Below are positions 1-41,789 of a DNA stretch of 64,000 bases, piece by piece. How positions within the stretch are numbered: position 1 is the stretch's first letter; each line of letters starts with the position of its first letter. A program made the position numbers and the translations under genes. Origin of the DNA: a virus; IMG/VR virus record IMGVR_UViG_3300045988_058615, positions 5,350 through 69,349 of that record, one strand, 5' to 3'. The notes under the pieces were generated by a model. That model was not told where the DNA came from and ran no database searches. It saw only the letters and a program-made list of their open reading frames with translations.

Positions 1-3000
1 ATCAATATCAGCAGTTGTAGGATTAATCTATAGTGCTGCAGAAGCAAACGTATTAAGTTCAGAATCTGTTAAAGAAATTTCTCTATCAATTACTCCATTC
101 ACATATATTCTAACTAAGTTAATGCTAGTAGTAGGAGCTGCCTAATCAAAAGCACTCTAGAAGCTAGCTAGGAAGTTCGGATAGTAAATATCACTCTTAG
201 AGATAACAAAGCCTTTCTATACAGTTACTAATACATGAGTCTCTACCCCTTCTTGGAATTGAGCATTTCTAGCATTAAATAAATCGTTATCCTCAGTATT
301 CCAACAGAATTGAGTAGGTCTCAACTAGAAGTTTCCTATTGTAGCTATTGGTTTGCTCTCATCACTAATGTTATAAGTTTTAAATCCTAATTCAATAGTG
401 AAATTATTTCCTAATCCTAAACTTAGAGGTGATTTTAGTATAGGATTATCCTGTGCAGATACTTTAAATATTGTACGCCCATCTTCTTCCTACCATCCGT
501 CTGACGATTCCAAATCTGATATTACCGTAGCCGGATTTGAACCAGTGGCATATTCGTCAGTAACAAAAATATCATTTAAGTAGCCTTCAATCTAGTCAAA
601 GTTCTTAGAAGGAGCTATATCCTACGAATATATAAATTCTGGATTCACTGCCTCTACTCTCATAGTTTTGAAGTTGCTTGTATAGGCGGTAGTCTATCCT
701 AAACTATTAGTAAATACAGTATAGAACTTATAGTAAGTATCATCTACTTTAATTACTAAATATTTTTCAGAATCGCTACTATTTATCTCTATATATTTTT
801 TATACGAAGTGTCGTAGACTCCCTATTCATTGTAAGATGAAGCGCTAATAACTTCATACTTCATGATTTCAGTAGGATTCATACTTTCAGAGTCTGGCAT
901 TTCATTCTCTAGATAAGTAGTTATAGCCATAGAGCTATTATCTGGGCTAAATACAGTTAACTCATATAGAGTAGCTACGCCATTGTTCGCAATACCATTA
1001 CTTACTCCATTAATAGCAACGATTGTTTCTGCGCAATTATATGTATAAATAATATCTACATAAATATAGTCTGTATAAATAGAACTCTCAGTATTATGGA
1101 CTGCCTTTACAGCTAATTGATTAAGTCCTGAGGTTAAACTAGAATAATTCAATACCCCTCCACTTGTAGAAAATGCAGAGCCGTTATTAAATCCCTCTAA
1201 GTGATAATTGCTAGTTGTTCCTCCAGTTAGAGAGAAATTAACTAGGTTGTTACTTAAGACAACTTCCCCATTGTAATTAAGAGTGATTACTTCGGTAGTA
1301 ATTGGAAGGTCTAAAGTATCTTCTACTTCAGGGTCATCTATTACCTGAGCAGTAATTTTCTTAGCAGACTAAGTTTTAGTAAATAACTCAGTAATATCTA
1401 TCCAAGCTAGAGTATCAATTAATTCCTCTGATGATACATTAACTCCAGTAATTGCTCCAGTAGAAGGATCAATAATACACTAGTTATATTTAATATTGTT
1501 TACTCTAAATGTTCCAGATTGAGTTCCATAACTAATCTTAACATTGAAAGGTCCAATTCTATCTGTTGTTACAGAAGTAGTAGCAACGGCGTACATTGCA
1601 ATACCAACCTTAACATTTCTATCAGAGTTATATTGCATCAAAAGAGAACTATTAGCCTCAGTATAGATTTTGTCAGTCTTATTGTCTAACATTACTCCAT
1701 ACACCATAATACCATAAGAGTACGTGGGAGGAATAACTGATACTTCAGTTTCTACCTTATCTCCATTACTCTTAAGAAGAGTAAGGATGCTAGTAGAAGA
1801 ATCATACGATGCATCTACTATATCCTATCCCTCTGTCTTCTCTATTTTTCGGCTTATGAAATCCTCAACCTCCATTCCAGAATGTCCATCCCATTCTGTT
1901 GCTAAATCTGTAATCTGATTAGGTAAATTTTCAAATTTTGCCATTTTTACAAATCAATTATTTTTCCATGAATCATCTTTTAACCAAGGTCTATCTTGTA
2001 GCCAAGTTCCGCTACCAAAACAGCTTCTAACAGCATCATATACGGTAAGCCAGACTAACTACGACCCTTTATATATAGCTCCAATGTTTTTTTGTACTCT
2101 TTGCTATACTTGGTCTACAAGTTCTAGAATATCTTTCTATACCTATAGTATTAACTTTCCGTTTCTATATATCATACTTTCTAAACATATAAATTAACTA
2201 AGTCAGCTAAATTATGGTACACTGGTTGTCCTGTATCTCTAGTACATAGATATATTATATCATTTTGTATATAATATTTTCCATTAAATAACTCCATATT
2301 GTTGTTATATGGTATTGGGTCTTCTAAAGTTCCAGCATGATCTTCTACTATCTCCTCATAAAGAGCAGCAGTAGCAATTGAAGGCGGTTGGTTCTCCAAG
2401 ACCTGACTTATTGTCTATCGTACTTTATATAGATGTCCTTTATAAGTGATTTTATCATTCTCATTTAGGGATTTTCCTATATATGCATTCCAGGAAGGAT
2501 ATAACGATTTACACTATAATGCCTCCTAATCTGTAAGTGATGTAGTCTTAATTAGAATCTTAGTTAGGTTTGTAATGTCTCTTAATGAGGGTACTAACTC
2601 AGAATTAATTGTAGACTCGGATTCTATTTTAAAATCCAATTTAACTTTGGTTTGAATCTCAGATACTAGATTAACGTATTCTAGATAATCATTATATGCG
2701 TCTGAATCTTCACTTAAACCAATAAGGTATTTATTATACTTATTTATCAAAGATAACTCATCCTCAGAGGATAGATACTGTCTAATCACAGCCTAAATAC
2801 ATTTTTTATAATCTGGCTATCCTGCTAGAAGAACCTAAATAAAACTGTATAGAGTTTTTTTCTATTCTTCTAATTCTGAATCACTGATAACTTCTATCTC
2901 TTTTATGTCATAGTTATAGTAATAAGTACCGTTCCCAAGTTTTTGGATTGTCTGGGGCTAAACGTCCATTTGTATTCTATTCGGTTCTAACATAAGGTGT

Positions 3001-3130
3001 TACTTTAAAATTTATAGGAAATTTGTATCTAAGCAAAGAATAATGTAATTTCTTATTCTTGCTTTTAAAATAATAGGGTTTGTTGTTATACATAAAGTGC
3101 ACTCTAAAATGGCTATGATAATCAACTACC
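1..3130 (-). other. Unresolved block of TAG-recoded late/structural coding sequence. The six-frame fragments at 823-1152, 1480-1707, 2181-2399, 2526-2789 and 2977-3195 are pieces of longer genes.
   Basis: Continuous minus-strand coding potential is interrupted only by TAG (cta on the plus strand). Gene ends were not resolved by hand. Confidence 0.3.
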
Positions 3131-3131
3131 T

Positions 3132-4193
3132 CTATAATGTGAATATACTTATTATAAAACTTAGATATATTGACTTCCTTTCCATTCCATTCCAATTTGA
3201 GAACTTCAAACCAGTCAAAGTTTCTATCTTTTTCAACAAATTCTTAGAATTACAGAATTTCATCCATCCGAAATAAGATCTCATTCTTCTTTCCAATTCT
3301 TCTCTATCAATCTTATTTTGCTTATATAGATTTATAAGCTTAAACATTCTCATTTTTATAGATTTTCTTAATAGAACGTGAGTGTGGTAAAATTTGTAGC
3401 CTACAAAATCTACTCCTCTACTTTCTACTGGAAATATCTAGTAGTTAGGTTTTAATTCTAAATTAAGAACTTGTTTTAAATACAGTTTTATAGATACTAA
3501 TACATTTCTCAAATAATTCTTGTCATTACCAAGAATCACAATATCGTCAGCATATCGAAAGTAGTACTTACATTTTAACTCCTCTTTTATCCAGTGGTCA
3601 AAATATGTCAGATATAAATTTGCAAAGAACTATGATAGATAGTTCCCAATAGGAACTCCTTTGGCTGAATATATTATTTCCTTCAATAGACTTAACAGTT
3701 TCTTATCCTTTATTTTCTTCTACAACATCTCATACAGGATGTCATGTGTTATAGATGGATAAAATTTTCTTATATCCATTTTTAGGCAGTATTTAGTTTC
3801 ATCTGGGTATTTCTACAATACCTTGAATAAATCATACTCTACCTTATGAATCCCTCTATTTCTTATAGAGGAATATGTCTAATCTATAAAAATGCTGGTC
3901 CAGATAGGTTCCATAATATTCATTATAGCGTGATGAGTGATTCTATCAGGGTAATATGGAAGTCTAAAGATTAATCTTTCTTTAGGCTCATATATTATAA
4001 ATGTACTATATTCAGAAGTCTAATAGATTAGCTATTTTAATTTGTCTGATAATTCCTTATTTTCTTCTAATCTATTCTTATCATGCTACTTAATACCACA
4101 TCGAATTGACTTATTTCTTCTAGCCTTATCATCAGCTAATTCGATGTTTTTCAAATCATACACTCGTTCGTGCAAATATCCTACACGTTTCAA
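3132..4193 (-). CDS. DGR reverse transcriptase, 353 aa, with in-frame TAG read as Gln; probable TTG start
   Basis: YADD box: plus 3543-3554 atcgtcagcata is minus TAT GCT GAC GAT. Hand translation gives ...IYEPKERLIFRLPYYPDRITHHAIMNIMEPIW...MDIRKFYPSI...GVPIGNYLS[TAG=Q]FFANLYLTYFDHW...RYADDIVILG...GVDFVGYKF, the canonical DGR RT motifs. At least 7 in-frame TAG. The C-terminus matches ORF 3132..3353. Confidence 0.85.
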
Positions 4194-4337
4194 TTTTTAT
4201 ATATTTCATCGGAAGCTTTCGAGATTTAACCTACTAACACCCTTCATTTAACACTACGTTGTCTTTTGCCTAGAGGCAAGGATATCACTTAACAAACTAA
4301 AAAAAAAATAAAATAAATTGTTCTAAATATATAATAA

Positions 4338-4436
4338 CTCAACATTGGAATTGGCATTGCTGACGTCATTGTTAGAATTGAAATAGCTAAGACCTGCATT
4401 GCTACCATTATTCGCATTGCTGCCTACTAGCAGTTC
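4338..4436 (-). repeat. DGR template repeat (TR), rich in AAT/AAC codons on the sense (minus) strand
   Basis: It is about 100 nt and homologous to 4538-4636. About 17 of 18 mismatches lie where the TR plus strand has T, i.e. A on the sense strand. The sense translation is ...VGSNANNGSNAGLSYFNSNNDVSNANSNV. Confidence 0.8.
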
Positions 4437-4510
4437 TTTTTTGCCAACCAACGGTTTTCAGAAGTAATATCCCACGATTTATATCTAAATCGATTTCTAT
4501 ATTTTATATC

Positions 4511-6331
4511 TTAAGATACTCTGTTTAGAGTCCTGAACCCAACAGTGGAAGTGGCAGCGCCGACGTCATAGTTAGAATAGAAAAAGCCAAGACCCGCATA
4601 GCTACCATTATTCGCAACGCCGCCCACCCGCAGCGTGCGAAGCGCTGTAGAGCTAGCGTTGCAATAGTGGTAATCACACATATAAGTTGTAGTTGAAGCT
4701 CCAGTACAAGAAGATGGTATAATCTCTGCTGTCTCTCCCAAGTCAAACTCTTTAATGTATCCATCTTGTGCTACCTCATATCCTGCTATAGTCTTGTCGC
4801 CAATTACGTCAGTAAACTCTTCCTTGTTTGTAGTAGTATATACACTACTGATTTCATTTGCCGCAGTTCTTTGAATAACTACTCCATCTAGGTTTGTCCA
4901 AATATCTCCAAATGGATTATCAAAACCTCTCCATCTTGGAACTTTAAATGTCTTAGTCACTACTGTATCTGTTCCGTTTGTTGCAGTACATTCTGGAATA
5001 ACTAAATCTTTGATTCCAGTGAAGTTACCAATATCATTACAATAACCACATGGAGTAATAGGATAGGTTCCATTATATCCAGACCAACTTGTAGCAGAGT
5101 TACTCCAGTCTGTAACTCCAGGACCAAGTCCTCCTTGACGATAACCATCAGAAGTAAGCTCAGCATTATAGGCAGCCTGAGAGTTAAAGTTAGCGTATTC
5201 TATTACATAGTTCCAGTAGAATATCCATTTATAATATTCATAACACAATAATTCAGAGCCTGCATTTGTGGCATAAGTTCTCATATTAGCTCTAGAAACA
5301 TTAGTTCTAGGTTTTCCTAAATCGCTTCTAAAAGCATCTTTGGTATCAAGTTCAGTAGTTAGATACTCATCGAATTGTGCTCTATTTCCACCGCCTCTAA
5401 ATGCTTCTGTAGTATTGACCACGGACACAGCTTTAGGGGTTTCTGACACAGTATTGTCAACTGTATTTCTATATGCGTCAATTAATAGTTCTGGTATTTC
5501 TGCCCACGAATCATCAAGCTTTACTAGAGAAATTCTAACCCATCTTTTATTTCCATTAGAGCCTGATTTACCATAAAATTTAGGAGTGTGGACTCTTACA
5601 GTCCCGTCGGTTCCATCAAGCACAGAAGGAGTACTCCCATCTTCTTTGTAAGCCCAATCGTCCGGATATAAATAGTAATTTACCACACCGTTATTTGCTA
5701 CACATCCTCTGTAAGCAGACTAAATAGGAAGGGATTTATGTAACAGTGGGTTTCCTATTCTAGTAAGGATAGGAGAAGATACGGTAATATCCCATTCTAC
5801 CCCATAAGAGTATAAGTCTACGTTACTGCTTAACTCTGTGACTTGTTTGCTTAGACTCTATTGTTCTTTTTGTAATTCTTCCCAAGCAGTATTAAGAGCA
5901 TCAAATTGTTCCTCTAACTTAGTACTAGTATCTGCCCACTATGCAGTCCCATCTTCAGAAAAGGTTAAAATCTATCCAAGTGCTCCTCCAGCAGGTATGT
6001 GTTTATTTCCAGAAGTAGTTGGGTGTACATAATTATTTGCATTATCTGCAATACCACTAAGTTTCTGTTTTTCAGTTTCTGTGTAATTAGCTTCAGAAAG
6101 TCCTTTTCCTAATTCTTTATCTACCTTACTTTCCAACTCCGTTTTAGTAGCTAAACCACTTATATCCTAGTGTTCCTTTAAATAATTTTCATCATTCTAT
6201 AACTAAGACACTTTAGTTGGAATGGCACTAGATTTTGCATATGTCTAATCTATAACATTTCCAGAGCCATCATAGGTAGCCTTTAAGTCATATACGGTTT
6301 CTCCAACCTTTATAGATTTGATAGCTGCCAT
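4511..6331 (-). CDS. Tail-fibre / receptor-binding protein, DGR target, about 607 aa, TAG-recoded
   Basis: Read from the ATG at 6331-6329 through several in-frame TAG into ORF 4511..5686. The sequence runs MAAIKSIKVGETVYDLKATYDGSGNVIDQTY...KHIPAGGALGQILTFSEDGTAQWAD...NNGVVNYYLYPDD..., and VR1 lies in the last ~35 codons. Confidence 0.7.
4538..4636 (-). repeat. DGR variable repeat VR1 at the 3' end of the tail-fibre gene
   Basis: Aligned base-by-base against 4338-4436. It differs almost only at TR adenines and is GC-richer. It encodes ...GGVANNGSYAGLGFFYSNYDVGAATSTVGF, a C-type-lectin-like end. Confidence 0.8.
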
Positions 6332-6339
6332 ATTATTGT

Positions 6340-9300
6340 ATTATTAAAGTTTCTTCTTCTACATTATGATCTATTCTTTCTATGGAGGCAGTTAAGTCTT
6401 CAACAGCTTTCTACAGTTCAGCCTTGGTAGCGTAGTTCTTTAATGTATCTGGGTCTATTCCAGATCCTCCTATATTTCCTCCAACAACTTTTACTGGTTT
6501 TGCTGAGTTCTTAAACTACCCTTCAACCCAAATTGTTCCCATACTATTTAAAATATTAATTGTTCATTTTCTCCATCTACCTGTACGTTACCAGAACCAG
6601 GCTATATTGCATCTATTTTCTTCTACAATTCGTCTACAGCAGCCTTTATTAATCCTTCCACCTCAGCTTTTGTATAGTAACGTTCTGTCAGATATTCACT
6701 TCTGACATATCCTGTATCCTATATATCTTTTTCTCCGTAAGTACAATAGTACGTATCGTTCTCTGTCCTATTATTTTCAACTAGGTCATCATAATCTGTT
6801 TGTGGAAGACATACCAATTTAGGAACCTCTTCTGTAAGAGCAACTTGCTTTCCAGATGCTAATAATCTATCGTCTTCTGTAGTAAGTTTAACAGAACTTT
6901 CAATAGTCTGTTCAGTTGTTTCATCTTCTGAACTTTCTCCAGTTGTTCTCTATTGTACTTCTTTTTCGACAATTTTCTAAATAGTAATATCAGAAGTTTC
7001 TATAGAGGTTGATTTCAGAAGCTCTGTACTAAATTCCTTAGAAGCGGCATCCTAATCTTCCTAATATTTCTTCTAGGTAACAAATATAAAATCGTCATCA
7101 CCGGTTTCGGGAGAATCTCCTCTCAAACTTTCTTTTGTTACATACTCCTCTGCTATCTAATTGGAAAGGTCAGTTAATGACTATTGAGTGGCGTATGTAG
7201 ATTGAGCATTTTCTTTCGTAAGAAACTTTTCATCTACCTACGAACTAGTGTAGTATGCTTTAATATCTTCTGTAGTAACGTAGCTTCCTAGTTTCTATAA
7301 ACCAGAAACAATTTCATCAATCTATGTCTTTGAGTAATAATTAGTGGCAACCCAGGACTAATACTGATGTGTAGTATGGTAATTTTGATCTAAGTACTCC
7401 TTAGTAATATAGACTTTAGCATCATTTGTTACATCATACACATAGTAATATGTATCAGGTTCTATAGCTTCCTCTTCTACCAGTCTTAAATATTCCTCTT
7501 CAGTTAATGTAACCAGATTAGGAACATCTGACATCATGGCGAATCGGTCTTCTCCAACAAACAATCCATCAGATTTAACATCTACTACTAGCTAATCCTC
7601 TTCTTCTACTATTGGAGACTTTATCTATCCTACAGTAATACTTTCTAGGGAACCATCCCCATCTACCTTTAAAGTCTTATCTAGCTCATCTTGGATAGCC
7701 TATTGGTCTTCGTCATACTATTTCTTTGTAACAAAAACAAAATCATCTCCTTCCATTCCTTCTCCTCTAAGACTTTCTTTGGTAACAAATATGTCATCAG
7801 TTTCTTCCTTAGTGTAATGGTTAGATAAGGCTTTAGATAACAAAGATTCTGGGTTCTCTAAATCTAAATCAGTTTTAGGGGCATAATTCTCAGTTAACTC
7901 TTCAAGAGTAGCATACTTGGAAAGGTTAGAGATTGTCTAGTCTAAATCCATTCTAATCTATACTACAGTAGTATTTAGAGCTTTCTATTTCAACTATTCC
8001 TCTATCTTTTTACCCCATTCTGCTGATAAATAAAACTAATCATCATCTAGGCCGTCTTCATATATATAATAATATGTTTCTGCATGAAGATATGTTTTAC
8101 CTTCGTCTATAGGTTTAAAATCTTCTGTGGTATTTTCAGACCATTCCTTATATTCAGCCTCTGTACAGGTGATTATCTAAATAGATTCATAAGAAGCTTT
8201 CCAACCTTCTTTGTATTTAATCTTAGACTTATCTACTAGCATATAAATATTTCCGTTATCTATATTTGAAACGGTCATGCCTTGATAAGCATATTTCTCC
8301 GGAATAGAATATAATTCGTCTAAATTATCGACTACTGTTCTATTATCAAGAGGTTTAGGAGTTTCTACGGTTAAAGCAACACCTAATGTAGCATCACCTG
8401 TATATTTAAATGCCATTATTGTGATAAAGTAAAGTTAATTTGGTGGGGCAATGCTGAAGAATAAGTATCCTTCTTAGTCCATACCTTATAAGGAAATCCA
8501 TTTATCTATTCGGTAGAAGTTTCCCAGCCACTTAAATCAACATTTAAGTATCCTAGTCCTCCATCTACTGTAAATGAATTTAGCTAAGTATTACTTCCAG
8601 GTAATTTTATAATAGCCTTTCCACTTAATGAAAATGTAATAATTCCAGAAGATTGTCCAAATGGAACAAGACTCTATTTGATTAAACTATCTGTATTACC
8701 AGAATACCAAGGGTAGGTAGCAGTCACCTATGCTGTAGTTGATATTGAACCAGCTTCCACTCTCTTCTCTGTAACTTCTCCTTTATTGTTAATAAGATAT
8801 TCTCCAGCAGCATAATTTACAGTACCAGAATGTACATAAACACCGATAGAATCATATGTTTCAGATTCTACAGGAGAATCATTATAGGTAATAGTTTCTT
8901 CTCTATCAGTTTCCTCTCCAGCATCATTTTTTATAAATGTTAAAGTAGGGGTAAGTAAAGCGGATCCTACCTCCACAATCTAAGAGGTGAAACTATAATA
9001 CAACTAAGGATAAACCAAATCTCTAACAACAGTAGGAAATAATAGAGTATCTATAATCTCATTAAACGGCTTTCCTTTCAATTTTTCAACTGTAGTTCCT
9101 TGAATAACAGCAGAAGTAGTATCATCTGGAAGTTCAGTTTGATAAGTAGCTATAGTTTCTAAACTTGTCTATATATTTGTGATATTCTCAGTATTAGAAT
9201 CTACTTTAGAATCAGTGTTCTTCTAAGCTTCCTATACTCCCTTAACTTCTTCCTTTACCTCTGTTAGAGATGGTTCCAAGTCTTTTACATATATTCCAGG

Positions 9301-16964: not shown

Positions 16965-17692
16965 TTATTTCATTTTAGAACCGCATTTACTTACTTTCAT
17001 TTTAGAACCACAAGCATCTTTCTTAGCATACTTTGTTCTATCTGGAACCCATTTTCCATTTTTAAAGTTTCCCTTATGTCCTTTATTTGCCATGACCTCC
17101 TAGTCATTATATTTGTTAATGGATACAGAATCTCTAGATGCTTCATCCTTTGCAGATTTCATATCCTTTTTATACTAAGCTCTTCCAGCCTTGAACTTAT
17201 CAACTTCATTAGCTTTCTTAGTAACCTTAGTTCCTTTCTATGCTTTTTGACAAGCTTTGCAGATTCTTCCTCCCTGTTTAAAATAAACAAGTTCCTCTCC
17301 TTCTGGGCATACTCCTTTTAATTTTTTATAGTACTCTAGTTTAGCTCCAAGTCTAGCCATAACTCCGCCTTGCATCTTCTACATAAATTCTTGATACTTG
17401 GCTTTGATTCCGTCTTCTCCAAGCTACTCAGCGTAAGCCTATAAATCTTGCTCTGATTGTAGTTGTATCCCTTGTGCTTGGGCATCTTGTATCAAGTATG
17501 CCACGAATGCCTTCTGTAATTCTTCCTAATTAGCCATTACTCTTCTACTTTAATTAAATCCTTTGTATTAAATACTGCTTCCTGCATTAATCCAGAATCA
17601 GTAAACCATCTACATCTTAGTCCTCGTAATCCTTGGTTATCTTTAAATAAAGCTGCTTCTCTTCTTAGAACAAGCATAACTGGAGAGTGCAT
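16965..17692 (-). CDS. Hypothetical zinc-ribbon protein, TAG-recoded. The frame is uncertain and the C-terminus ends in a tandem CGSKMKVSKCGSKMK.
   Basis: Hand translation gives MHSPVMLVLRREAALFKDNQGL...CPEGEELVYFKQGGRICKACQKA... The length is not a multiple of 3, so there is a hand-reading error somewhere. Confidence 0.25.
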
Positions 17693-17747
17693 TACTTTAC
17701 ACTACCGTAAAGTAACACAATCCCCAGGCTTAAAATAAACTTTTTCA

Positions 17748-18350
17748 TCAATTGTTTCCATGCTTCAATTCGTCTCTTCTTTCAGTTAGTTTCTCATTAA
17801 CTACAGCCATGATTCTATTCTCATTAACTACTACAAATCCTAGTTTATAGAATGGAACCATACATTCGCTAGCTATTGTATAAAATACAATATCTCCAGG
17901 CTTCAAGAACTCACACTTGTGTCCTACTTCTATCACAGTTCCTACTTTAATAAATTGTTGTTCTTCTTCAATTTCTCCAGTTTCATTAGATTTATAAGTA
18001 GGAGTAAATCCACCTAAATCAGTAATAAGACCGCTTTTAGTAGTTTTTATTTTTTGGAATGGGTTTTGTTCAAAAGGTTTAATTAATGCATACCCATACA
18101 TCGGCATAATTTCAAGTCCATTCATATCGTTAGATAATGACTTAGCGTAATCCTCTAGTGCCTGATTATGTTTAGAGAATTTATCTTCTAACTCATCTAC
18201 TGAGGTATTAAACTTCTCTTGTTTTTCTCTTAATAATGTTTGGTCTGCAGCCTCTCCATTTAAAATAAAATGTTCTCCCGTACCTTCCATTCCAGTTAAT
18301 GATAGTGCTAGTTTTTCGTTACTGTTTAATTCTGTTCTCAAAGTTTCCAT
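17748..18350 (-). CDS. Co-chaperonin GroES (Cpn10)-like domain protein, 200 aa
   Basis: The C-terminal ~90 aa, ALIKPFEQNPFQKIKTTKSGLI...KVGTVIEVGHKCEFLKPGDIVFYT...NENRIMAVVNE, aligns with the GroES/gp31 pattern (mobile loop, VKVGD, IL.IVEA). No TAG. Confidence 0.5.
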   Translation of the reverse strand: METLRTELNSNEKLALSLTGMEGTGEHFILNGEAADQTLLREKQEKFNTSVDELEDKFSKHNQALEDYAKSLSNDMNGLEIMPMYGYALIKPFEQNPFQKIKTTKSGLITDLGGFTPTYKSNETGEIEEEQQFIKVGTVIEVGHKCEFLKPGDIVFYTIASECMVPFYKLGFVVVNENRIMAVVNEKLTERRDELKHGNN

Positions 18351-18358
18351 AATTCATT

Positions 18359-18892: not shown

Positions 18893-19807
18893 TTAATATT
18901 CAATACGTTGACGTTTTCTTTTATTTTCTGCTAATATAGATTCCTTCTTATAGAAGGCTAGCATTTTTATAACCTCATCTTTTAGATATGGCAAATGATA
19001 TACTGTCATATTGTCATTATGGTCGAAATGTACTAAAACCAAATCCTCTATTTCAAACTCTGGATTTTTCTTTTGAATCATCCAAGCGTAAGTACTTAAT
19101 TGTAAAGTATAGTGCCAGTAATTAACATCATCTAAATTATTTAGAGGATATTTCATCTTAACAGAAGTTTTGGTTTTGGAATTGAAGAAACTCTTAGTTT
19201 CTATTTTCTTATTGGTCTTCCAGTCTCCTATAATTATCTTATTTCCTCTTTTAACTAATAAGTCAATCTGTCCTGCTATTCTTAGCTTTCCATCATCCGA
19301 TACTCTAGATATTAAATACTCAGGATATACACCATTCTCTAAGTCTAATTCATTATGGTCTTTTATACACTCGAACTTGCCACCTATTTGATATTTACTA
19401 AGGTCTATGTTCTGTTTCTTTTTATAGAAGGAGTTTTCCAAATCTGCATGGATTTTAGTTCCTCTCTCGCATGAGTTTCTATTCTCTAAATCCCAAGCAT
19501 CTAAGATAGCTTGTTGCTCTTTATTAAACTCGTCTTCTGTAATGTTATGAAGTTCAAGTAGAACTTTATCAAATTTCTTAGTGTTCAACAAAGACTTTTT
19601 TTCTATAGCCCAATCTTCTTTAGGTAAGAGTTTCTCTAGTGCTTTATATGCTGACCAGAACTCCTTATCAAATGGTTGGGTGAAAGAATGAATTAAAGTC
19701 GTTACAGATATAAACTTCTGTTCTGGCTTTGTAACATCATAATAAATATGGGCTTCTTCCTCAAAAGCTATGTTCCCATTTTGTTTTGTAATTTTACTTT
19801 TGTCCAT
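18893..19807 (-). CDS. Putative PD-(D/E)xK-type nuclease, 304 aa
   Basis: D...D...(Q)IDLLVK arrangement (ISRVSDDGKLRIAGQIDLLVKRGN) and His-rich HFDHND. No TAG. The call is weak. Confidence 0.4.
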   Translation of the reverse strand: MDKSKITKQNGNIAFEEEAHIYYDVTKPEQKFISVTTLIHSFTQPFDKEFWSAYKALEKLLPKEDWAIEKKSLLNTKKFDKVLLELHNITEDEFNKEQQAILDAWDLENRNSCERGTKIHADLENSFYKKKQNIDLSKYQIGGKFECIKDHNELDLENGVYPEYLISRVSDDGKLRIAGQIDLLVKRGNKIIIGDWKTNKKIETKSFFNSKTKTSVKMKYPLNNLDDVNYWHYTLQLSTYAWMIQKKNPEFEIEDLVLVHFDHNDNMTVYHLPYLKDEVIKMLAFYKKESILAENKRKRQRIEY

Positions 19808-19921
19808 TAGTCATAATTCATTTAATCATTTATCACATTTATCTATATTTATTTGATACTTTTCAAGTATATTAATATTCTTTGTAAGATACAAATCAAT
19901 AAATAATACATTATATTAAAA

Positions 19922-21712: not shown

Positions 21713-21729
21713 AACTATTAATTTTGGCG

Positions 21730-21801
21730 TTGCCCTACTAGGATTCGAACCCAGACTAAATGATTTAGAGTCATCTGTGCTGACCATTACACCATAGGGC
21801 A
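21730..21801 (-). tRNA. Amber-suppressor tRNA(CUA), derived from tRNA-Gln
   Basis: Minus-strand sequence TGCCCTA-TG-GTGT-AATGGTCA-GCAC-A-GATGA-CTCTAAA-TCATT-TAGTC-CTGGG-TTCGAAT-CCTAG-TAGGGCA-A. The acceptor has 7 perfect base pairs, the anticodon loop is CU-CUA-AA, and the D and T arms are nearly identical to tRNA-Gln(UUG) at 33778-33848. Confidence 0.85.
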
Positions 21802-33709: not shown

Positions 33710-33777
33710 CGCATTGTGTGTTTTTTTTTCATGGTAAATATGAGCTTGACGGTTCGGGAGAGTAGTTAAGCTAAATT

Positions 33778-33848
33778 GGGCTATGGTGTAATGGTTAGCA
33801 CTACAGATTTTGATTCTGTCAGTCTAGGTTCGAGTCCTAGTAGCCCAA
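33778..33848 (+). tRNA. tRNA-Gln(TTG)
   Basis: GGGCTAT-GG-TGTAATGGTTAGCAC-TACAGA-TTTTGAT-TCTGTC...CTAGG-TTCGAGT-CCTAG-TAGCCCA-A. Confidence 0.85.
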
Positions 33849-34396
33849 CTAAATACAGTCGTTGAGGAGACTCGACCTTGCATACCTAGAGTCGGTAAAG
33901 TCAGCTGAATAAATCCGATGCGGTATTATCCACGAATAATCAAACAGACGTCTACAGAATAGTGGAAGCGAGAGCGCAGAAAGGCTGTATTTTTAATAAT
34001 AAGTATTATCGGTAAGACTATAATATTTAAGTGTCAATCAATAAGTGCTTATGCTTAATATAACTTCTTTCAACATTGGAGAGATAACTAGTAAAGTATC
34101 TCTAAATACTCCCAGTAGCGGAATAATCCAGAGGTCTCATCCTAGAAGTAAATTCGTAAGATTTCATTCTAGGTCTTCTATGTCAGAATATGCATTCTCT
34201 AGCAGGCCAAGACTAGGTAAGGATGAACCGGAAATTGTGGTGTTGCAGATTATGGTATTTGGCAATGATGAATTGCTAGTTGAATATGTCTGCAAACAGG
34301 AACTAACAGTAGAATAGGTTATTAGACCGGTAAATAACCTTCCGTAGCCAGTCGGACGTTGGAAGCTTATAGTCCTACGATAGTGAGACTAAATCT

Positions 34397-41154: not shown

Positions 41155-41701
41155 GGGCCTACTTGGATTTGACAGGCGATTACAAATTATAAGGACGTGT
41201 AGAGCGCAATCTCTTTAAACGACGAAAACAAATAACTGCAGAAATTGCACCTGTAAGAATGGCAGCCTAAGCTGCTGGCTTATTAATAGACACTATTAAT
41301 CAAGTCGGGTTACTGGAGAGACCTAGAAACAGAAGAGGTTAGGTGTATCGCTAATGGCGTGCGGACGATAATCCGTGGTATATCTTTAATCAGAACACTC
41401 TAAGAGTTAGTAAGACTGAATCTCCATTGTCTTTAAACAGAAGGGATGCGTGGTTGACTCACCACAAACACTCGTTTTCCTACTTTAGCGTTAAAAAGTA
41501 GGTGGTGGAAGAATGACTTCGGTCAGCCCCTAGTTTGGTGGTTTGTAAACTAGTTTCTGGAACTCCGATAGTGTAGTTTAGAGTAAGTCTAGTAAAACTA
41601 TCTAAATGCTAGAACTCACTAGCTGATGTAATAAAAATGAGACGCACGTTATCCTTGTAATAAGGGTTGTTTGGACACGGGTTCGACTCCCGTTAGGTCC
41701 A
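41155..41701 (+). ncRNA. ssrA: tmRNA-like (ssrA) gene, about 547 nt
   Basis: The 5' end GGGCCTACTTGGATTTGACAGGCGATT matches the E. coli pattern GGGGCTGATTCTGGATTCGACGGGATT. The 3' end GGAC-ACGGG-TTCGACT-CCCGT-TAGGTCC-A matches GGAC-GCGGG-TTCAACT-CCCGC-CAGCTCC-A. The acceptor GGGCCTA/TAGGTCC carries G3·U70. Internally, TAGAGC-GCA-ATC...AAACGACGAAAAC matches the E. coli TAGTC-GCA-AACGACGAAAAC resume region. Confidence 0.75.
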
Positions 41702-41789
41702 CACTCTTTGTAGCAATTCCTGGCACGGGAAGTGTCCTGATATAAAGACGCTTGTAAATGTGCACTTGCATGGTGATACAAAGAGAAAT

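Follow-up and report, generated by a model that had tools for sequence, protein, structure and literature searches.

Diversity-generating retroelements (DGRs) of lineage 3 have no avd gene, and about 20% of DGR reverse transcriptases (RTs) carry uncharacterised C-terminal extensions (PMC5758913). In crAssphage LMMB the target gene (TG) with its variable repeat (VR) is followed by a template repeat (TR) and the RT, again with no avd, and this TG-VR-TR-RT element was placed in lineage 3 of Wu et al. (PMC7290462). [quoted passage not shown] As for RNA, the RT-10 motif lies between TR and RT in BPP-1 and is the only motif assigned to a DGR, while other RT motifs were speculated to serve other DGRs and the role of RT-17 was left open (PMC5737381, Weinberg et al. 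2017). Here we report a locus in 64,000 nt of viral DNA (the window, positions 5,350–69,349 of IMG/VR record IMGVR_UViG_3300045988_058615), which is almost certainly a DGR of the Avd-less target-VR/TR/RT architecture, located in the late block of a crAss-related phage that reads TAG as glutamine. The adenine bias between TR and VR, an RT of the DGR type and a CLec target uphold the original prediction, made from the sequence letters, of a DGR composed of an RT, a TR and a tail-fibre VR. The kind of element is already known, Avd-less target-TR-RT DGRs of crAss-like phages since 2020 and amber-suppressed RTs in Zeta phages of about 180 kb since 2025; the novelty implied by that prediction was too high, because amber-RT, avd-less, CLec-target DGRs have been published for Zeta phages (PMC12386605).

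A direct-repeat search of positions 2500–7500 returned a single strong pair, 4336–4433 and 4536–4633 (98 nt, 82% identity, offset exactly 200 nt), in which mismatches were read on the minus, coding strand. The pair had been predicted at 4338–4436 and 4538–4636 with about 18 differences; the pairing and the count hold, while the coordinates were 2–3 nt off. When the copies were aligned and the mismatches tabulated, 17 of the 18 fell on TR adenines and the other was a T>G change at 4429. Only 30 of the 98 TR nucleotides are adenines, which gives a hypergeometric P of 4e-10 for at least 17 of 18 mismatches on A, and the predicted restriction of all but one mismatch to coding-strand adenines is thereby borne out, as is the richness of the AT-rich copy in AAT and AAC codons, of which we counted nine. 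TR lies on the same strand as the RT, 142 nt upstream of it, and the gap between VR and TR is 102 nt. The window TR equals that of the related locus L021 and shows four differences, all non-adenine, from the TR common to most other close relatives. No further VR was found in the 64-kb window. At their 3′ ends the repeats read GTTGGGTT (VR) and GTTGAGTT (TR), and this G/A difference is fixed across 19 relatives.

The variability expected of such a cassette was assessed in 84 related metagenomic loci (cited below by L numbers where needed), 19 close relatives being used for polymorphism counts. The same cassette is present in most of the 84; most of those with enough upstream sequence have a TR/VR pair 140–230 nt upstream of the RT, with 84–100% of the mismatches at TR adenines. 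All VRs of the 19 close relatives are distinct, even between genomes whose RTs are 98–99% identical, and TR is essentially invariant, being identical in most. Polymorphism in VR affects 27 of the 30 sites that are adenine in TR (mean 3.3 alleles) versus 11 of the 68 other sites, and 407 of the 428 pooled TR-VR mismatches are at A. The sole non-adenine difference of the window, T>G at 4429, is a polymorphism also found in other relatives, hence the window VR shows no decay. This pattern speaks clearly for activity of the element in the recent past, present activity being uncertain. In the TRs of L003 (9490–9587), L007 (4768–4865) and L038 (4765–4862) several A>N changes occur at TR adenines and are not copied from the respective VR. 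These may be due to occasional mutagenic homing into TR, which is conceivable because the 3′ ends of VR and TR differ by one base, or to TR/VR read chimeras made by the assembler.

The gene downstream of TR showed all the RT features that had been predicted, namely YADD (3543–3554), the N-terminal block IYEPKERLIFRLPYYPDRITHHAIMN and GVPIGNYLS-Q with its Q written as TAG (3630–3632), as well as the minimum of seven TAG codons, there being eight in the core and one in the C-terminal domain. The suggested profile search of the translation with TAG read through gave RVT_1 at E 1.8e-18 for the stop-to-stop open reading frame (ORF) 3012–4196, which also matches PHROG 1423 “reverse transcriptase” (E 1e-112). 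The glutamine of IGNYLS-Q is encoded by CAA or CAG in relatives, and by TAG in the closest subclade too. In motif 4, DGR RTs are marked by [LIV]GxxxSQ, and catalysis falls to the aspartates of YADD; to call the SQ motif catalytic was therefore loose wording, although its Q is indeed TAG. A TTG start, as proposed, is probable, since TTG 4191–4193 aligns with the Met of homologs starting MKRIGYLHE. Just upstream of this TTG, and at the same place in L001–L004, there is a poly-A run (4196–4209) with A5 in the window and A6 or A7 in relatives; genomes with A7 have an upstream ATG in frame (430-aa call), and with A6 gene callers use an internal Met, giving the 334-aa P0008 with 2,073 members. Among solved structures, the profile of the RT family best matched 8ub7_A, which is BPP-1 Brt (E 5e-58, profile positions 2–329), with retron-type and group II RTs at 6e-21 or worse in the same comparison, 37 orders of magnitude behind. 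Directly compared, Brt (from NC_005357) is 34% identical to the intact relative P0001 (E 6e-46) and its C-terminus falls at P0001 residue ~335. For this reason the part of the window RT that precedes the frameshift described below is co-linear with complete Brt, and the ~90 aa that follow residue ~335 of P0001 are an addition not present in BPP-1 Brt.

The VR lies, as predicted, at the lectin-like end of a tail-fibre gene, which has 606 and not 607 codons for amino acids. Its VR-bearing C-terminus was found to have the CLec fold, with no Pfam match in the VR region, and its eight in-frame TAG codons are all within the N-terminal third. Two small hairpins accompany the repeats. The one directly 3′ of VR (ACTCT-AAAC-AGAGT) retains its stem with another loop in close relatives and is weak in relatives of ~72% identity, coding constraint confounding this comparison; it could possibly be a target-recognition hairpin. 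For the other, between the target stop codon and TR, two compensatory base-pair changes were seen in L019 (CAGTTTA/TAAACTG), and we only raise the question of whether it is a terminator or a processing site of the TR transcript. Coordinates of these features are collected in the table.

Table. Features of the DGR locus and its suppressor tRNA, in window coordinates
Feature	Position	Strand	Remarks
RT C-terminal domain, displaced; small, beta-rich	2914–3189	-	91 codons + stop, 1 TAG
5-nt tandem duplication AATGG-AATGG	3182–3191	-	shifts RT frame after residue ~334
RT core, ~334 aa	3192–4193	-	TTG start 4191–4193; 8 in-frame TAG; counterpart of entire BPP-1 Brt
Structured spacer RNA, probably divergent RT-17-class motif	4195–4291	-	RNAalifold, covariance model R1
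TR	4336–4433	-	non-coding, AT-rich; 30 adenines; 9 AAT/AAC codons in VR register
7-bp hairpin CGATTTA-GATA-TAAATCG	4475–4492	-	between target stop codon and TR
Small hairpin ACTCT-AAAC-AGAGT	4518–4531	-	directly 3′ of VR, inside last target codons
VR	4536–4633	-	codon phase 0, within last 41 target codons; ends 8 codons short of stop
DGR target, tail-fibre protein, 606 aa	4511–6331	-	ATG 6331, TAA 4511–4513; C-terminal C-type-lectin-fold domain
Suppressor tRNA, anticodon CTA	21729–21801	-	ARAGORN; Rfam tRNA 66.3 bits; needed for translation of RT, target and remaining late genes

At 1–17.5 kb the minus strand is shredded under the standard code. Once TAG is read as sense, the amount of sequence in long ORFs rises from 41.9 to 77.3 kb, and the terminase, portal, tail and fibre genes become contiguous. 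Codon-level alignments with nine relatives show CAA or CAG in 146 of the 191 cases in which a window TAG stands opposite another codon, and of all tRNAs in the window the one most similar to the CTA tRNA is the phage's tRNA-Gln(TTG) at 33777–33849, with 78% identity. Both the codon correspondence and the derivation of the suppressor from a tRNA-Gln indicate that TAG is read as glutamine. TAG accounts for 37–76% of Gln codons in late genes and for 0% in every examined gene beyond 17.7 kb, which agrees with the prediction that the DGR is embedded in a TAG-recoded late module. The boundary of recoding is sharp (~17550–17750) and falls within one strand: ORFs up to 16965–17549 are recoded, and those at 17748–18353 and 18893–19810 are without TAG. 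The RT is the most TAG-dependent gene of the window (9 of 11 Gln codons, the core contributing 8/10 and the C-terminal domain 1/1), and its TAGs, including that of the SQ motif, align to CAA or CAG in relatives, so that the predicted need of this RT for TAG to be read as Gln is supported.

The RT of the window is interrupted by a tandem duplication of 5 nt. In a DNA alignment with L001–L004, the window reads TGG-AATGG-AATGG-AAAGG where relatives read TGG-AATGG-AAAAG. Past the duplication, the RT frame continues through 56 junk codons up to TAA 3012–3014; the last ~55 residues of ORF 3012–4196 read as junk, and the overlapping frame 2914–3243 reads as protein. With TAG as Q, tblastn divided the window RT into residues 6–344 and 340–430 in two frames, and a query with the frames joined found thousands of homologs of 400–430 aa covering 96–100% of it. 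The closest relatives of the RT are P0001 (a 184-kb contig) and L021, both metagenomic and 92% identical. Among the 84 relatives only L037 and L044 have frameshifted RTs, each at another site. The exact duplicated junction had no match in the viral and metagenome contig collections that were searched, whereas 10 contigs of 106–193 kb have the same flanks around the unduplicated junction. An RT of 353 aa ending at 3132 had been predicted; this end is wrong, because 3132–3134 is a TAG that is sense here and lies out of frame past the shift at 3182–3191, and homologs extend to 400–430 aa. Intact homologous RTs end in a C-terminus that shares 90% identity with the displaced domain. Pfam gave no match for the RT C-terminal domain or for small neighbouring ORFs, and a BFVD structure search with the domain returned only RTs and one annotation fragment. 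The latter, A0A8S5RJI1 of virus sp. ctML55, is a 100-aa “uncharacterized protein” 90% identical to the domain, and its length corresponds to the distance from Met (MRSYFGW...) to the TAG after ...PYVRTE, which identifies it as a fragment created by standard-code annotation of a recoded relative.

Avd is a basic four-helix bundle of ~110–130 aa encoded beside TR. There is no ORF between VR and TR in the window, as was foreseen, and PF05635 (Avd) had no match at E <= 10 to any neighbouring ORF of the window or of L001. The ORF 2917–3195, flagged originally as a candidate Avd-like ORF, is instead the displaced C-terminal domain of the RT: it is beta-rich, is 90% identical to the C-termini of intact RTs and has no PF05635 match, and its identity with Avd is rejected. 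RTs of this clade carry a conserved ~90-aa beta-rich C-terminal domain, which may stand in place of Avd. In the 84 relatives, RTs are either long (402–437 aa), with the domain, or short (322–347 aa) and Brt-sized, and loci with a short RT have a separate same-strand ORF of ~96–117 aa that overlaps the RT stop or occupies the avd slot between target and TR. The fused domain only was found in 61 relatives, the separate ORF only in 19, both in none and neither in 4, counts which are not phylogenetically independent. Loci with the separate ORF, annotated “hypothetical”, are L063–L084 (e.g. L071 5953–6258, L066 3777–4112) and L099 (3992–4279). Its family comprises at least 1,362 database clusters, has no Pfam domain and extends to a virus of Methanosarcinales. 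With hhalign the fused and the standalone forms are collinear over 65 columns (P ~1e-3, probability 17–25%); in the methanogen virus vir525, a 95-aa ORF reaches 4e-18 with the standalone profile and 11.0 bits with that of the fused domain, the latter score being attained by 0 of 2916 shuffles, and the window domain matches the standalone profile at P ~0.013. These matches are weak and collinear, and the two forms may be homologous. By size and charge the ~100-aa ORF fits none of the four accessory classes of Wu et al.; their CH1 gene (160–169 aa, acidic) was considered and rejected. A survey of Bacteroides DGRs (bioRxiv 2024.11.15.621889) does not mention the small-protein module.

The spacer between TR and RT is conserved above the flanking coding sequence. 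In the consensus that RNAalifold derived from 26 diverse spacers, 8 of 10 pairs are compensatory. Its layout consists of a P1 hairpin (4266–4279), an invariant A-rich tract, a P2 helix (4237–4242 with 4211–4216) and then GAA, P2 enclosing an invariant UURGUA box (4230–4240) and an inner hairpin P3. In a 12-pair version 94.9% of cells are paired versus 36–58% with the partner slid, with 35 double-sided changes versus at most 7; for 50 distinct sequences the figures are 95.4% and 91 versus at most 17, from an alignment fitted to the model and hence leaning to it. A covariance model (R1) gave exactly one strong match (E <= 0.002) in 84 of 84 relatives and in the window (4184–4291), abutting the RT start. 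Further R1 matches lie just upstream of the RTs of LMMB (92.8 bits), Psychrobacillus phage Perkons (46.7), cr130_1 (34.8), vir525 (26.4) and Bacteroides phage Versailles (20.7). Each of the five has a layout of tail protein, gap and RT and no annotated avd; in BPP-1 the model found nothing even with filters off. Of the Rfam families, RT-17 (RF03020) matches the window at full length with 29.7 bits (E 9e-4), below its gathering score of 40.4, and RT-18 scores 23.7 bits on the spacer. RT-17 is above gathering at the same place in L073 (57.7 bits) and L066 (42.6 bits), and R1 unites these two and the window in one covarying family. The window RNA thus behaves like RT-17 and is probably a divergent member, though under Rfam's cut-off, and RT-17 at this locus fits the speculation of Weinberg et al. 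Rfam Phage_DGR (RF03022), which BPP-1 holds in the same slot with 104.7 bits, had no match in the window either at gathering or at E <= 10.

This DGR belongs to a crAss-related gut phage of ~185–190 kb, most likely a Zeta crAss-like phage. TerL and portal match crAss-type PHROGs, TerL matching crAss-like phages only, at 26–28% identity; the window has 27 tRNAs plus the CTA suppressor and a GC content of 35.6%, and related contigs measure 183–193 kb. Together with the amber recoding, these values agree with Table 1 of PMC12386605. A megablast of 2100–8500 against 50,697 phage records gave no match, the named Zeta crAss genomes evidently not being among these records. The nearest named RT is that of LMMB, with 57% identity over 94% of its length, C-terminal domain included.

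Taken together, a mechanism can be proposed, of which sequence signatures show the first three steps and the last three are modelled on BPP-1. TR (4336–4433) duplicates the final ~33 tail-fibre codons in non-coding, adenine-rich form, and an RNA containing TR and the downstream RT-17-class structured spacer would be made. The RT is translated only when the CTA suppressor tRNA, a tRNA-Gln derivative, is available, since TAG stands for 9 of the 11 glutamines of the protein, and this dependence ties RT production to the late, recoded phase. By analogy with BPP-1, the RT may then copy TR into cDNA with misincorporation opposite adenines, the spacer RNA presumably recruiting the RT and priming the synthesis, a part played in BPP-1 by the unrelated Phage_DGR RNA. 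The cDNA would replace VR (4536–4633), and ~10 AAY-encoded residues on the face with which the C-type-lectin-fold tip binds ligand would be randomised, which may consequently alter host recognition.

Several points weigh against a DGR of this description that is intact and at work. The RT ORF is not intact: its Brt-equivalent core is whole, but the C-terminal domain specific to the clade has been shifted into another frame, and with a conserved domain displaced in this way the element may be dead in this genome. A canonical GC-rich initiation of mutagenic homing (IMH) site or GC-rich 14-mer is not evident, the repeat merely ending GTTG(G/A)GTT. The VR diversity observed is that between relatives, the functions given to the C-terminal domain and, in priming, to the spacer RNA are ones that we infer, and the Zeta assignment is drawn from features of the genome, the similarity of the RT and remote TerL matches rather than from phylogeny. 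That the locus is not a DGR, and that a chance or recombinational repeat lies beside a retron or group-II-intron-type RT, could be argued from RVT_1, which alone cannot separate RT classes, and from PHROG and GenBank labels of relatives that include “retron-type”. This reading is refuted by the adenine-specific mismatches (P = 4e-10, repeated in dozens of relatives), by the Brt match of 5e-58 against 6e-21 for retron-type and group II RTs together with the GxxxSQ motif, and by the CLec target; its probability is negligible.

The state of the DGR depends on how the duplication is read. If it is real and removes an essential C-terminal domain, the VR is now frozen and the element a fossil. The frameshift is unambiguous against 84 relatives, in which the domain is kept in 61 and all others but four have the separate ~100-aa ORF, suggesting that the module matters; moreover, 5-nt tandem duplications are typical of replication slippage, L037 and L044 are also frameshifted, and incomplete or silent DGR cassettes were reported to be common in crAss-like phages (PMC7290462, PMC12386605). 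Yet the VR is without decay, so any inactivation must be very recent; two large collections contain no other contig with the duplicated junction, which means that the lineage has not fixed it; and the retained core is co-linear with complete, active BPP-1 Brt. We regard such a loss as quite conceivable, though short of an even chance. The duplication being private, with ten contigs having the exact flanks without it and the remaining cassette intact and under evident constraint, it might also be an assembly or sequencing error or a minority allele picked up by the assembler, in which case the 430-aa RT of the real phage would be whole and its DGR fully active. However, base-calling errors do not typically take the form of a clean 5-nt tandem duplication outside a homopolymer, and this explanation seems to us slightly less probable than a real loss. 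Perhaps the split RT still works, with core and C-terminal module made as two polypeptides, for instance from TTG 3193–3195 giving M-EWNGKEVNISKF... This would mimic relatives whose ~100-aa protein has an ORF of its own that overlaps the RT stop. In support, 19 relatives with short RTs have a separate ~100-aa ORF near RT or TR and none has both forms, the break is exactly at the domain boundary where Brt ends, the separate ORF of vir525 matches both the standalone (4e-18) and the fused-domain (11.0 bits) profiles, and a frameshifted, apparently active DGR RT was proposed for Quimbyvirus (PMC8008677). Nevertheless, with an hhalign probability of 17–25% homology of the fused and standalone forms is not established, initiation at TTG 3193–3195 is purely hypothetical, the 56 junk codons after the core could cause misfolding, and the arrangement is not found in relatives. 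A programmed frameshift was rejected, as the extra 5 nt are absent from relatives and no conserved slippery site exists. All in all, a working split RT is doubtful.

The DGR itself is confirmatory, being another member of a class described between 2020 and 2025, and its by-products could matter more. A covarying RT-17-class RNA occupies the slot between TR and RT in all Avd-less relatives that were examined, which range from crAss-like phages to a phage of Bacillota and a virus of methanogens, and the small protein module, fused or separate, has a strictly complementary distribution. We tentatively propose that Avd-less DGRs of this clade use a ribonucleoprotein unlike that of BPP-1, in which the RT-17-class TR-RT RNA and a small beta-barrel (OB-like) module may take over from Avd and the Phage_DGR RNA the tasks of recruiting the template and priming. 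This module would be joined to the C-terminus of the RT in crAss-like phages, the present one included, or would be a ~100-aa protein of its own whose ORF fills the avd slot or overlaps the RT stop; the duplication of the window would then be a natural “fission” at the domain boundary. RNA and module together offer a concrete, testable answer to what Wu et al. (2018) asked, namely how DGRs of lineage 3 can do without Avd. As the most TAG-dependent gene, the RT also supports the view that late functions are gated by recoding, among them in this case the mutagenesis of the receptor-binding protein. Finally, standard-code annotation shreds these RTs, the ctML55 fragment being an example, and DGR surveys consequently under-count recoded RTs.

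Other features of the window are mentioned for completeness. Downstream of the RT, the ORF 2172–2999 (minus strand) encodes 273 aa where relatives have 117 + 73 aa, with ~450–600 nt extra and a CBM5/12-like end (weak Pfam match, E 0.011; PHROGs 30034 and 27545). A scan of 2800–6700 for sigma-70 promoters and terminators gave 18 promoter-like sites against 17.1 expected, Bacteroidota and phage promoters being outside its scope. On the plus strand, a RAGATH-14 RNA at 23975–24170 (150.7 bits, gathering 149.1) is directly followed by a tRNA-like gene (24202–24274) for which ARAGORN gives a 4-base anticodon, gcag. A tRNA array of ~26 or more genes for most amino acids extends over 26455–48543 (plus strand) in the non-recoded part of the genome, and within a tRNA-rich region Rfam detects a tmRNA at 41155–41704 (plus strand; 74.6 bits, gathering 47; 550 nt versus a model of 374 positions) that ARAGORN did not call, and which looks like a phage tmRNA-like gene, possibly with an insertion.

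In comparison with known systems, the locus resembles those DGRs that Zeta crAss-like phages carry in the size of its relatives, ~27 tRNAs, a suppressor tRNA with anticodon CTA and late genes recoded at amber codons, in the order tail fibre (VR), TR and RT, in a GxxxSQ RT with in-frame amber codons and no AVD, and in a single C-terminal C-type-lectin domain and RTs of ~414 aa with variable C-termini; it differs in its private frameshift and in an RT only ~72–74% identical to P0012 and P0014, the 414-aa RTs that could be linked to these phages. Its target-TR-RT architecture without avd matches lineage 3, to which it may belong; the nearest named RT, that of LMMB, was placed there by its authors. 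With LMMB and lineage 3 it shares the TG-VR-TR-RT order without avd, the same R1 spacer RNA and a tail-fibre CLec target, whereas LMMB is an Intestiviridae phage of ~98 kb that uses the standard code, and its IMH and IMH* were reported identical, versus one A>G at the 3′ end of the window repeat. BPP-1 is more different, having avd between mtd and TR, RF03022 as spacer and a Brt without the C-terminal domain, and the window genes, unlike its own, need TAG suppression. Like RT-17, the window RNA lies directly 5′ of the RT gene and matches the full-length model, although this copy scores below gathering. Quimbyvirus (PMC8008677) is likewise a gut Bacteroidota phage with a DGR whose RT is in more than one frame and whose VR shows adenine-specific diversification; there, however, the multi-frame RT is described as a feature of the genus with two proposed programmed frameshifts, and here the frameshift is private and due to a tandem duplication.

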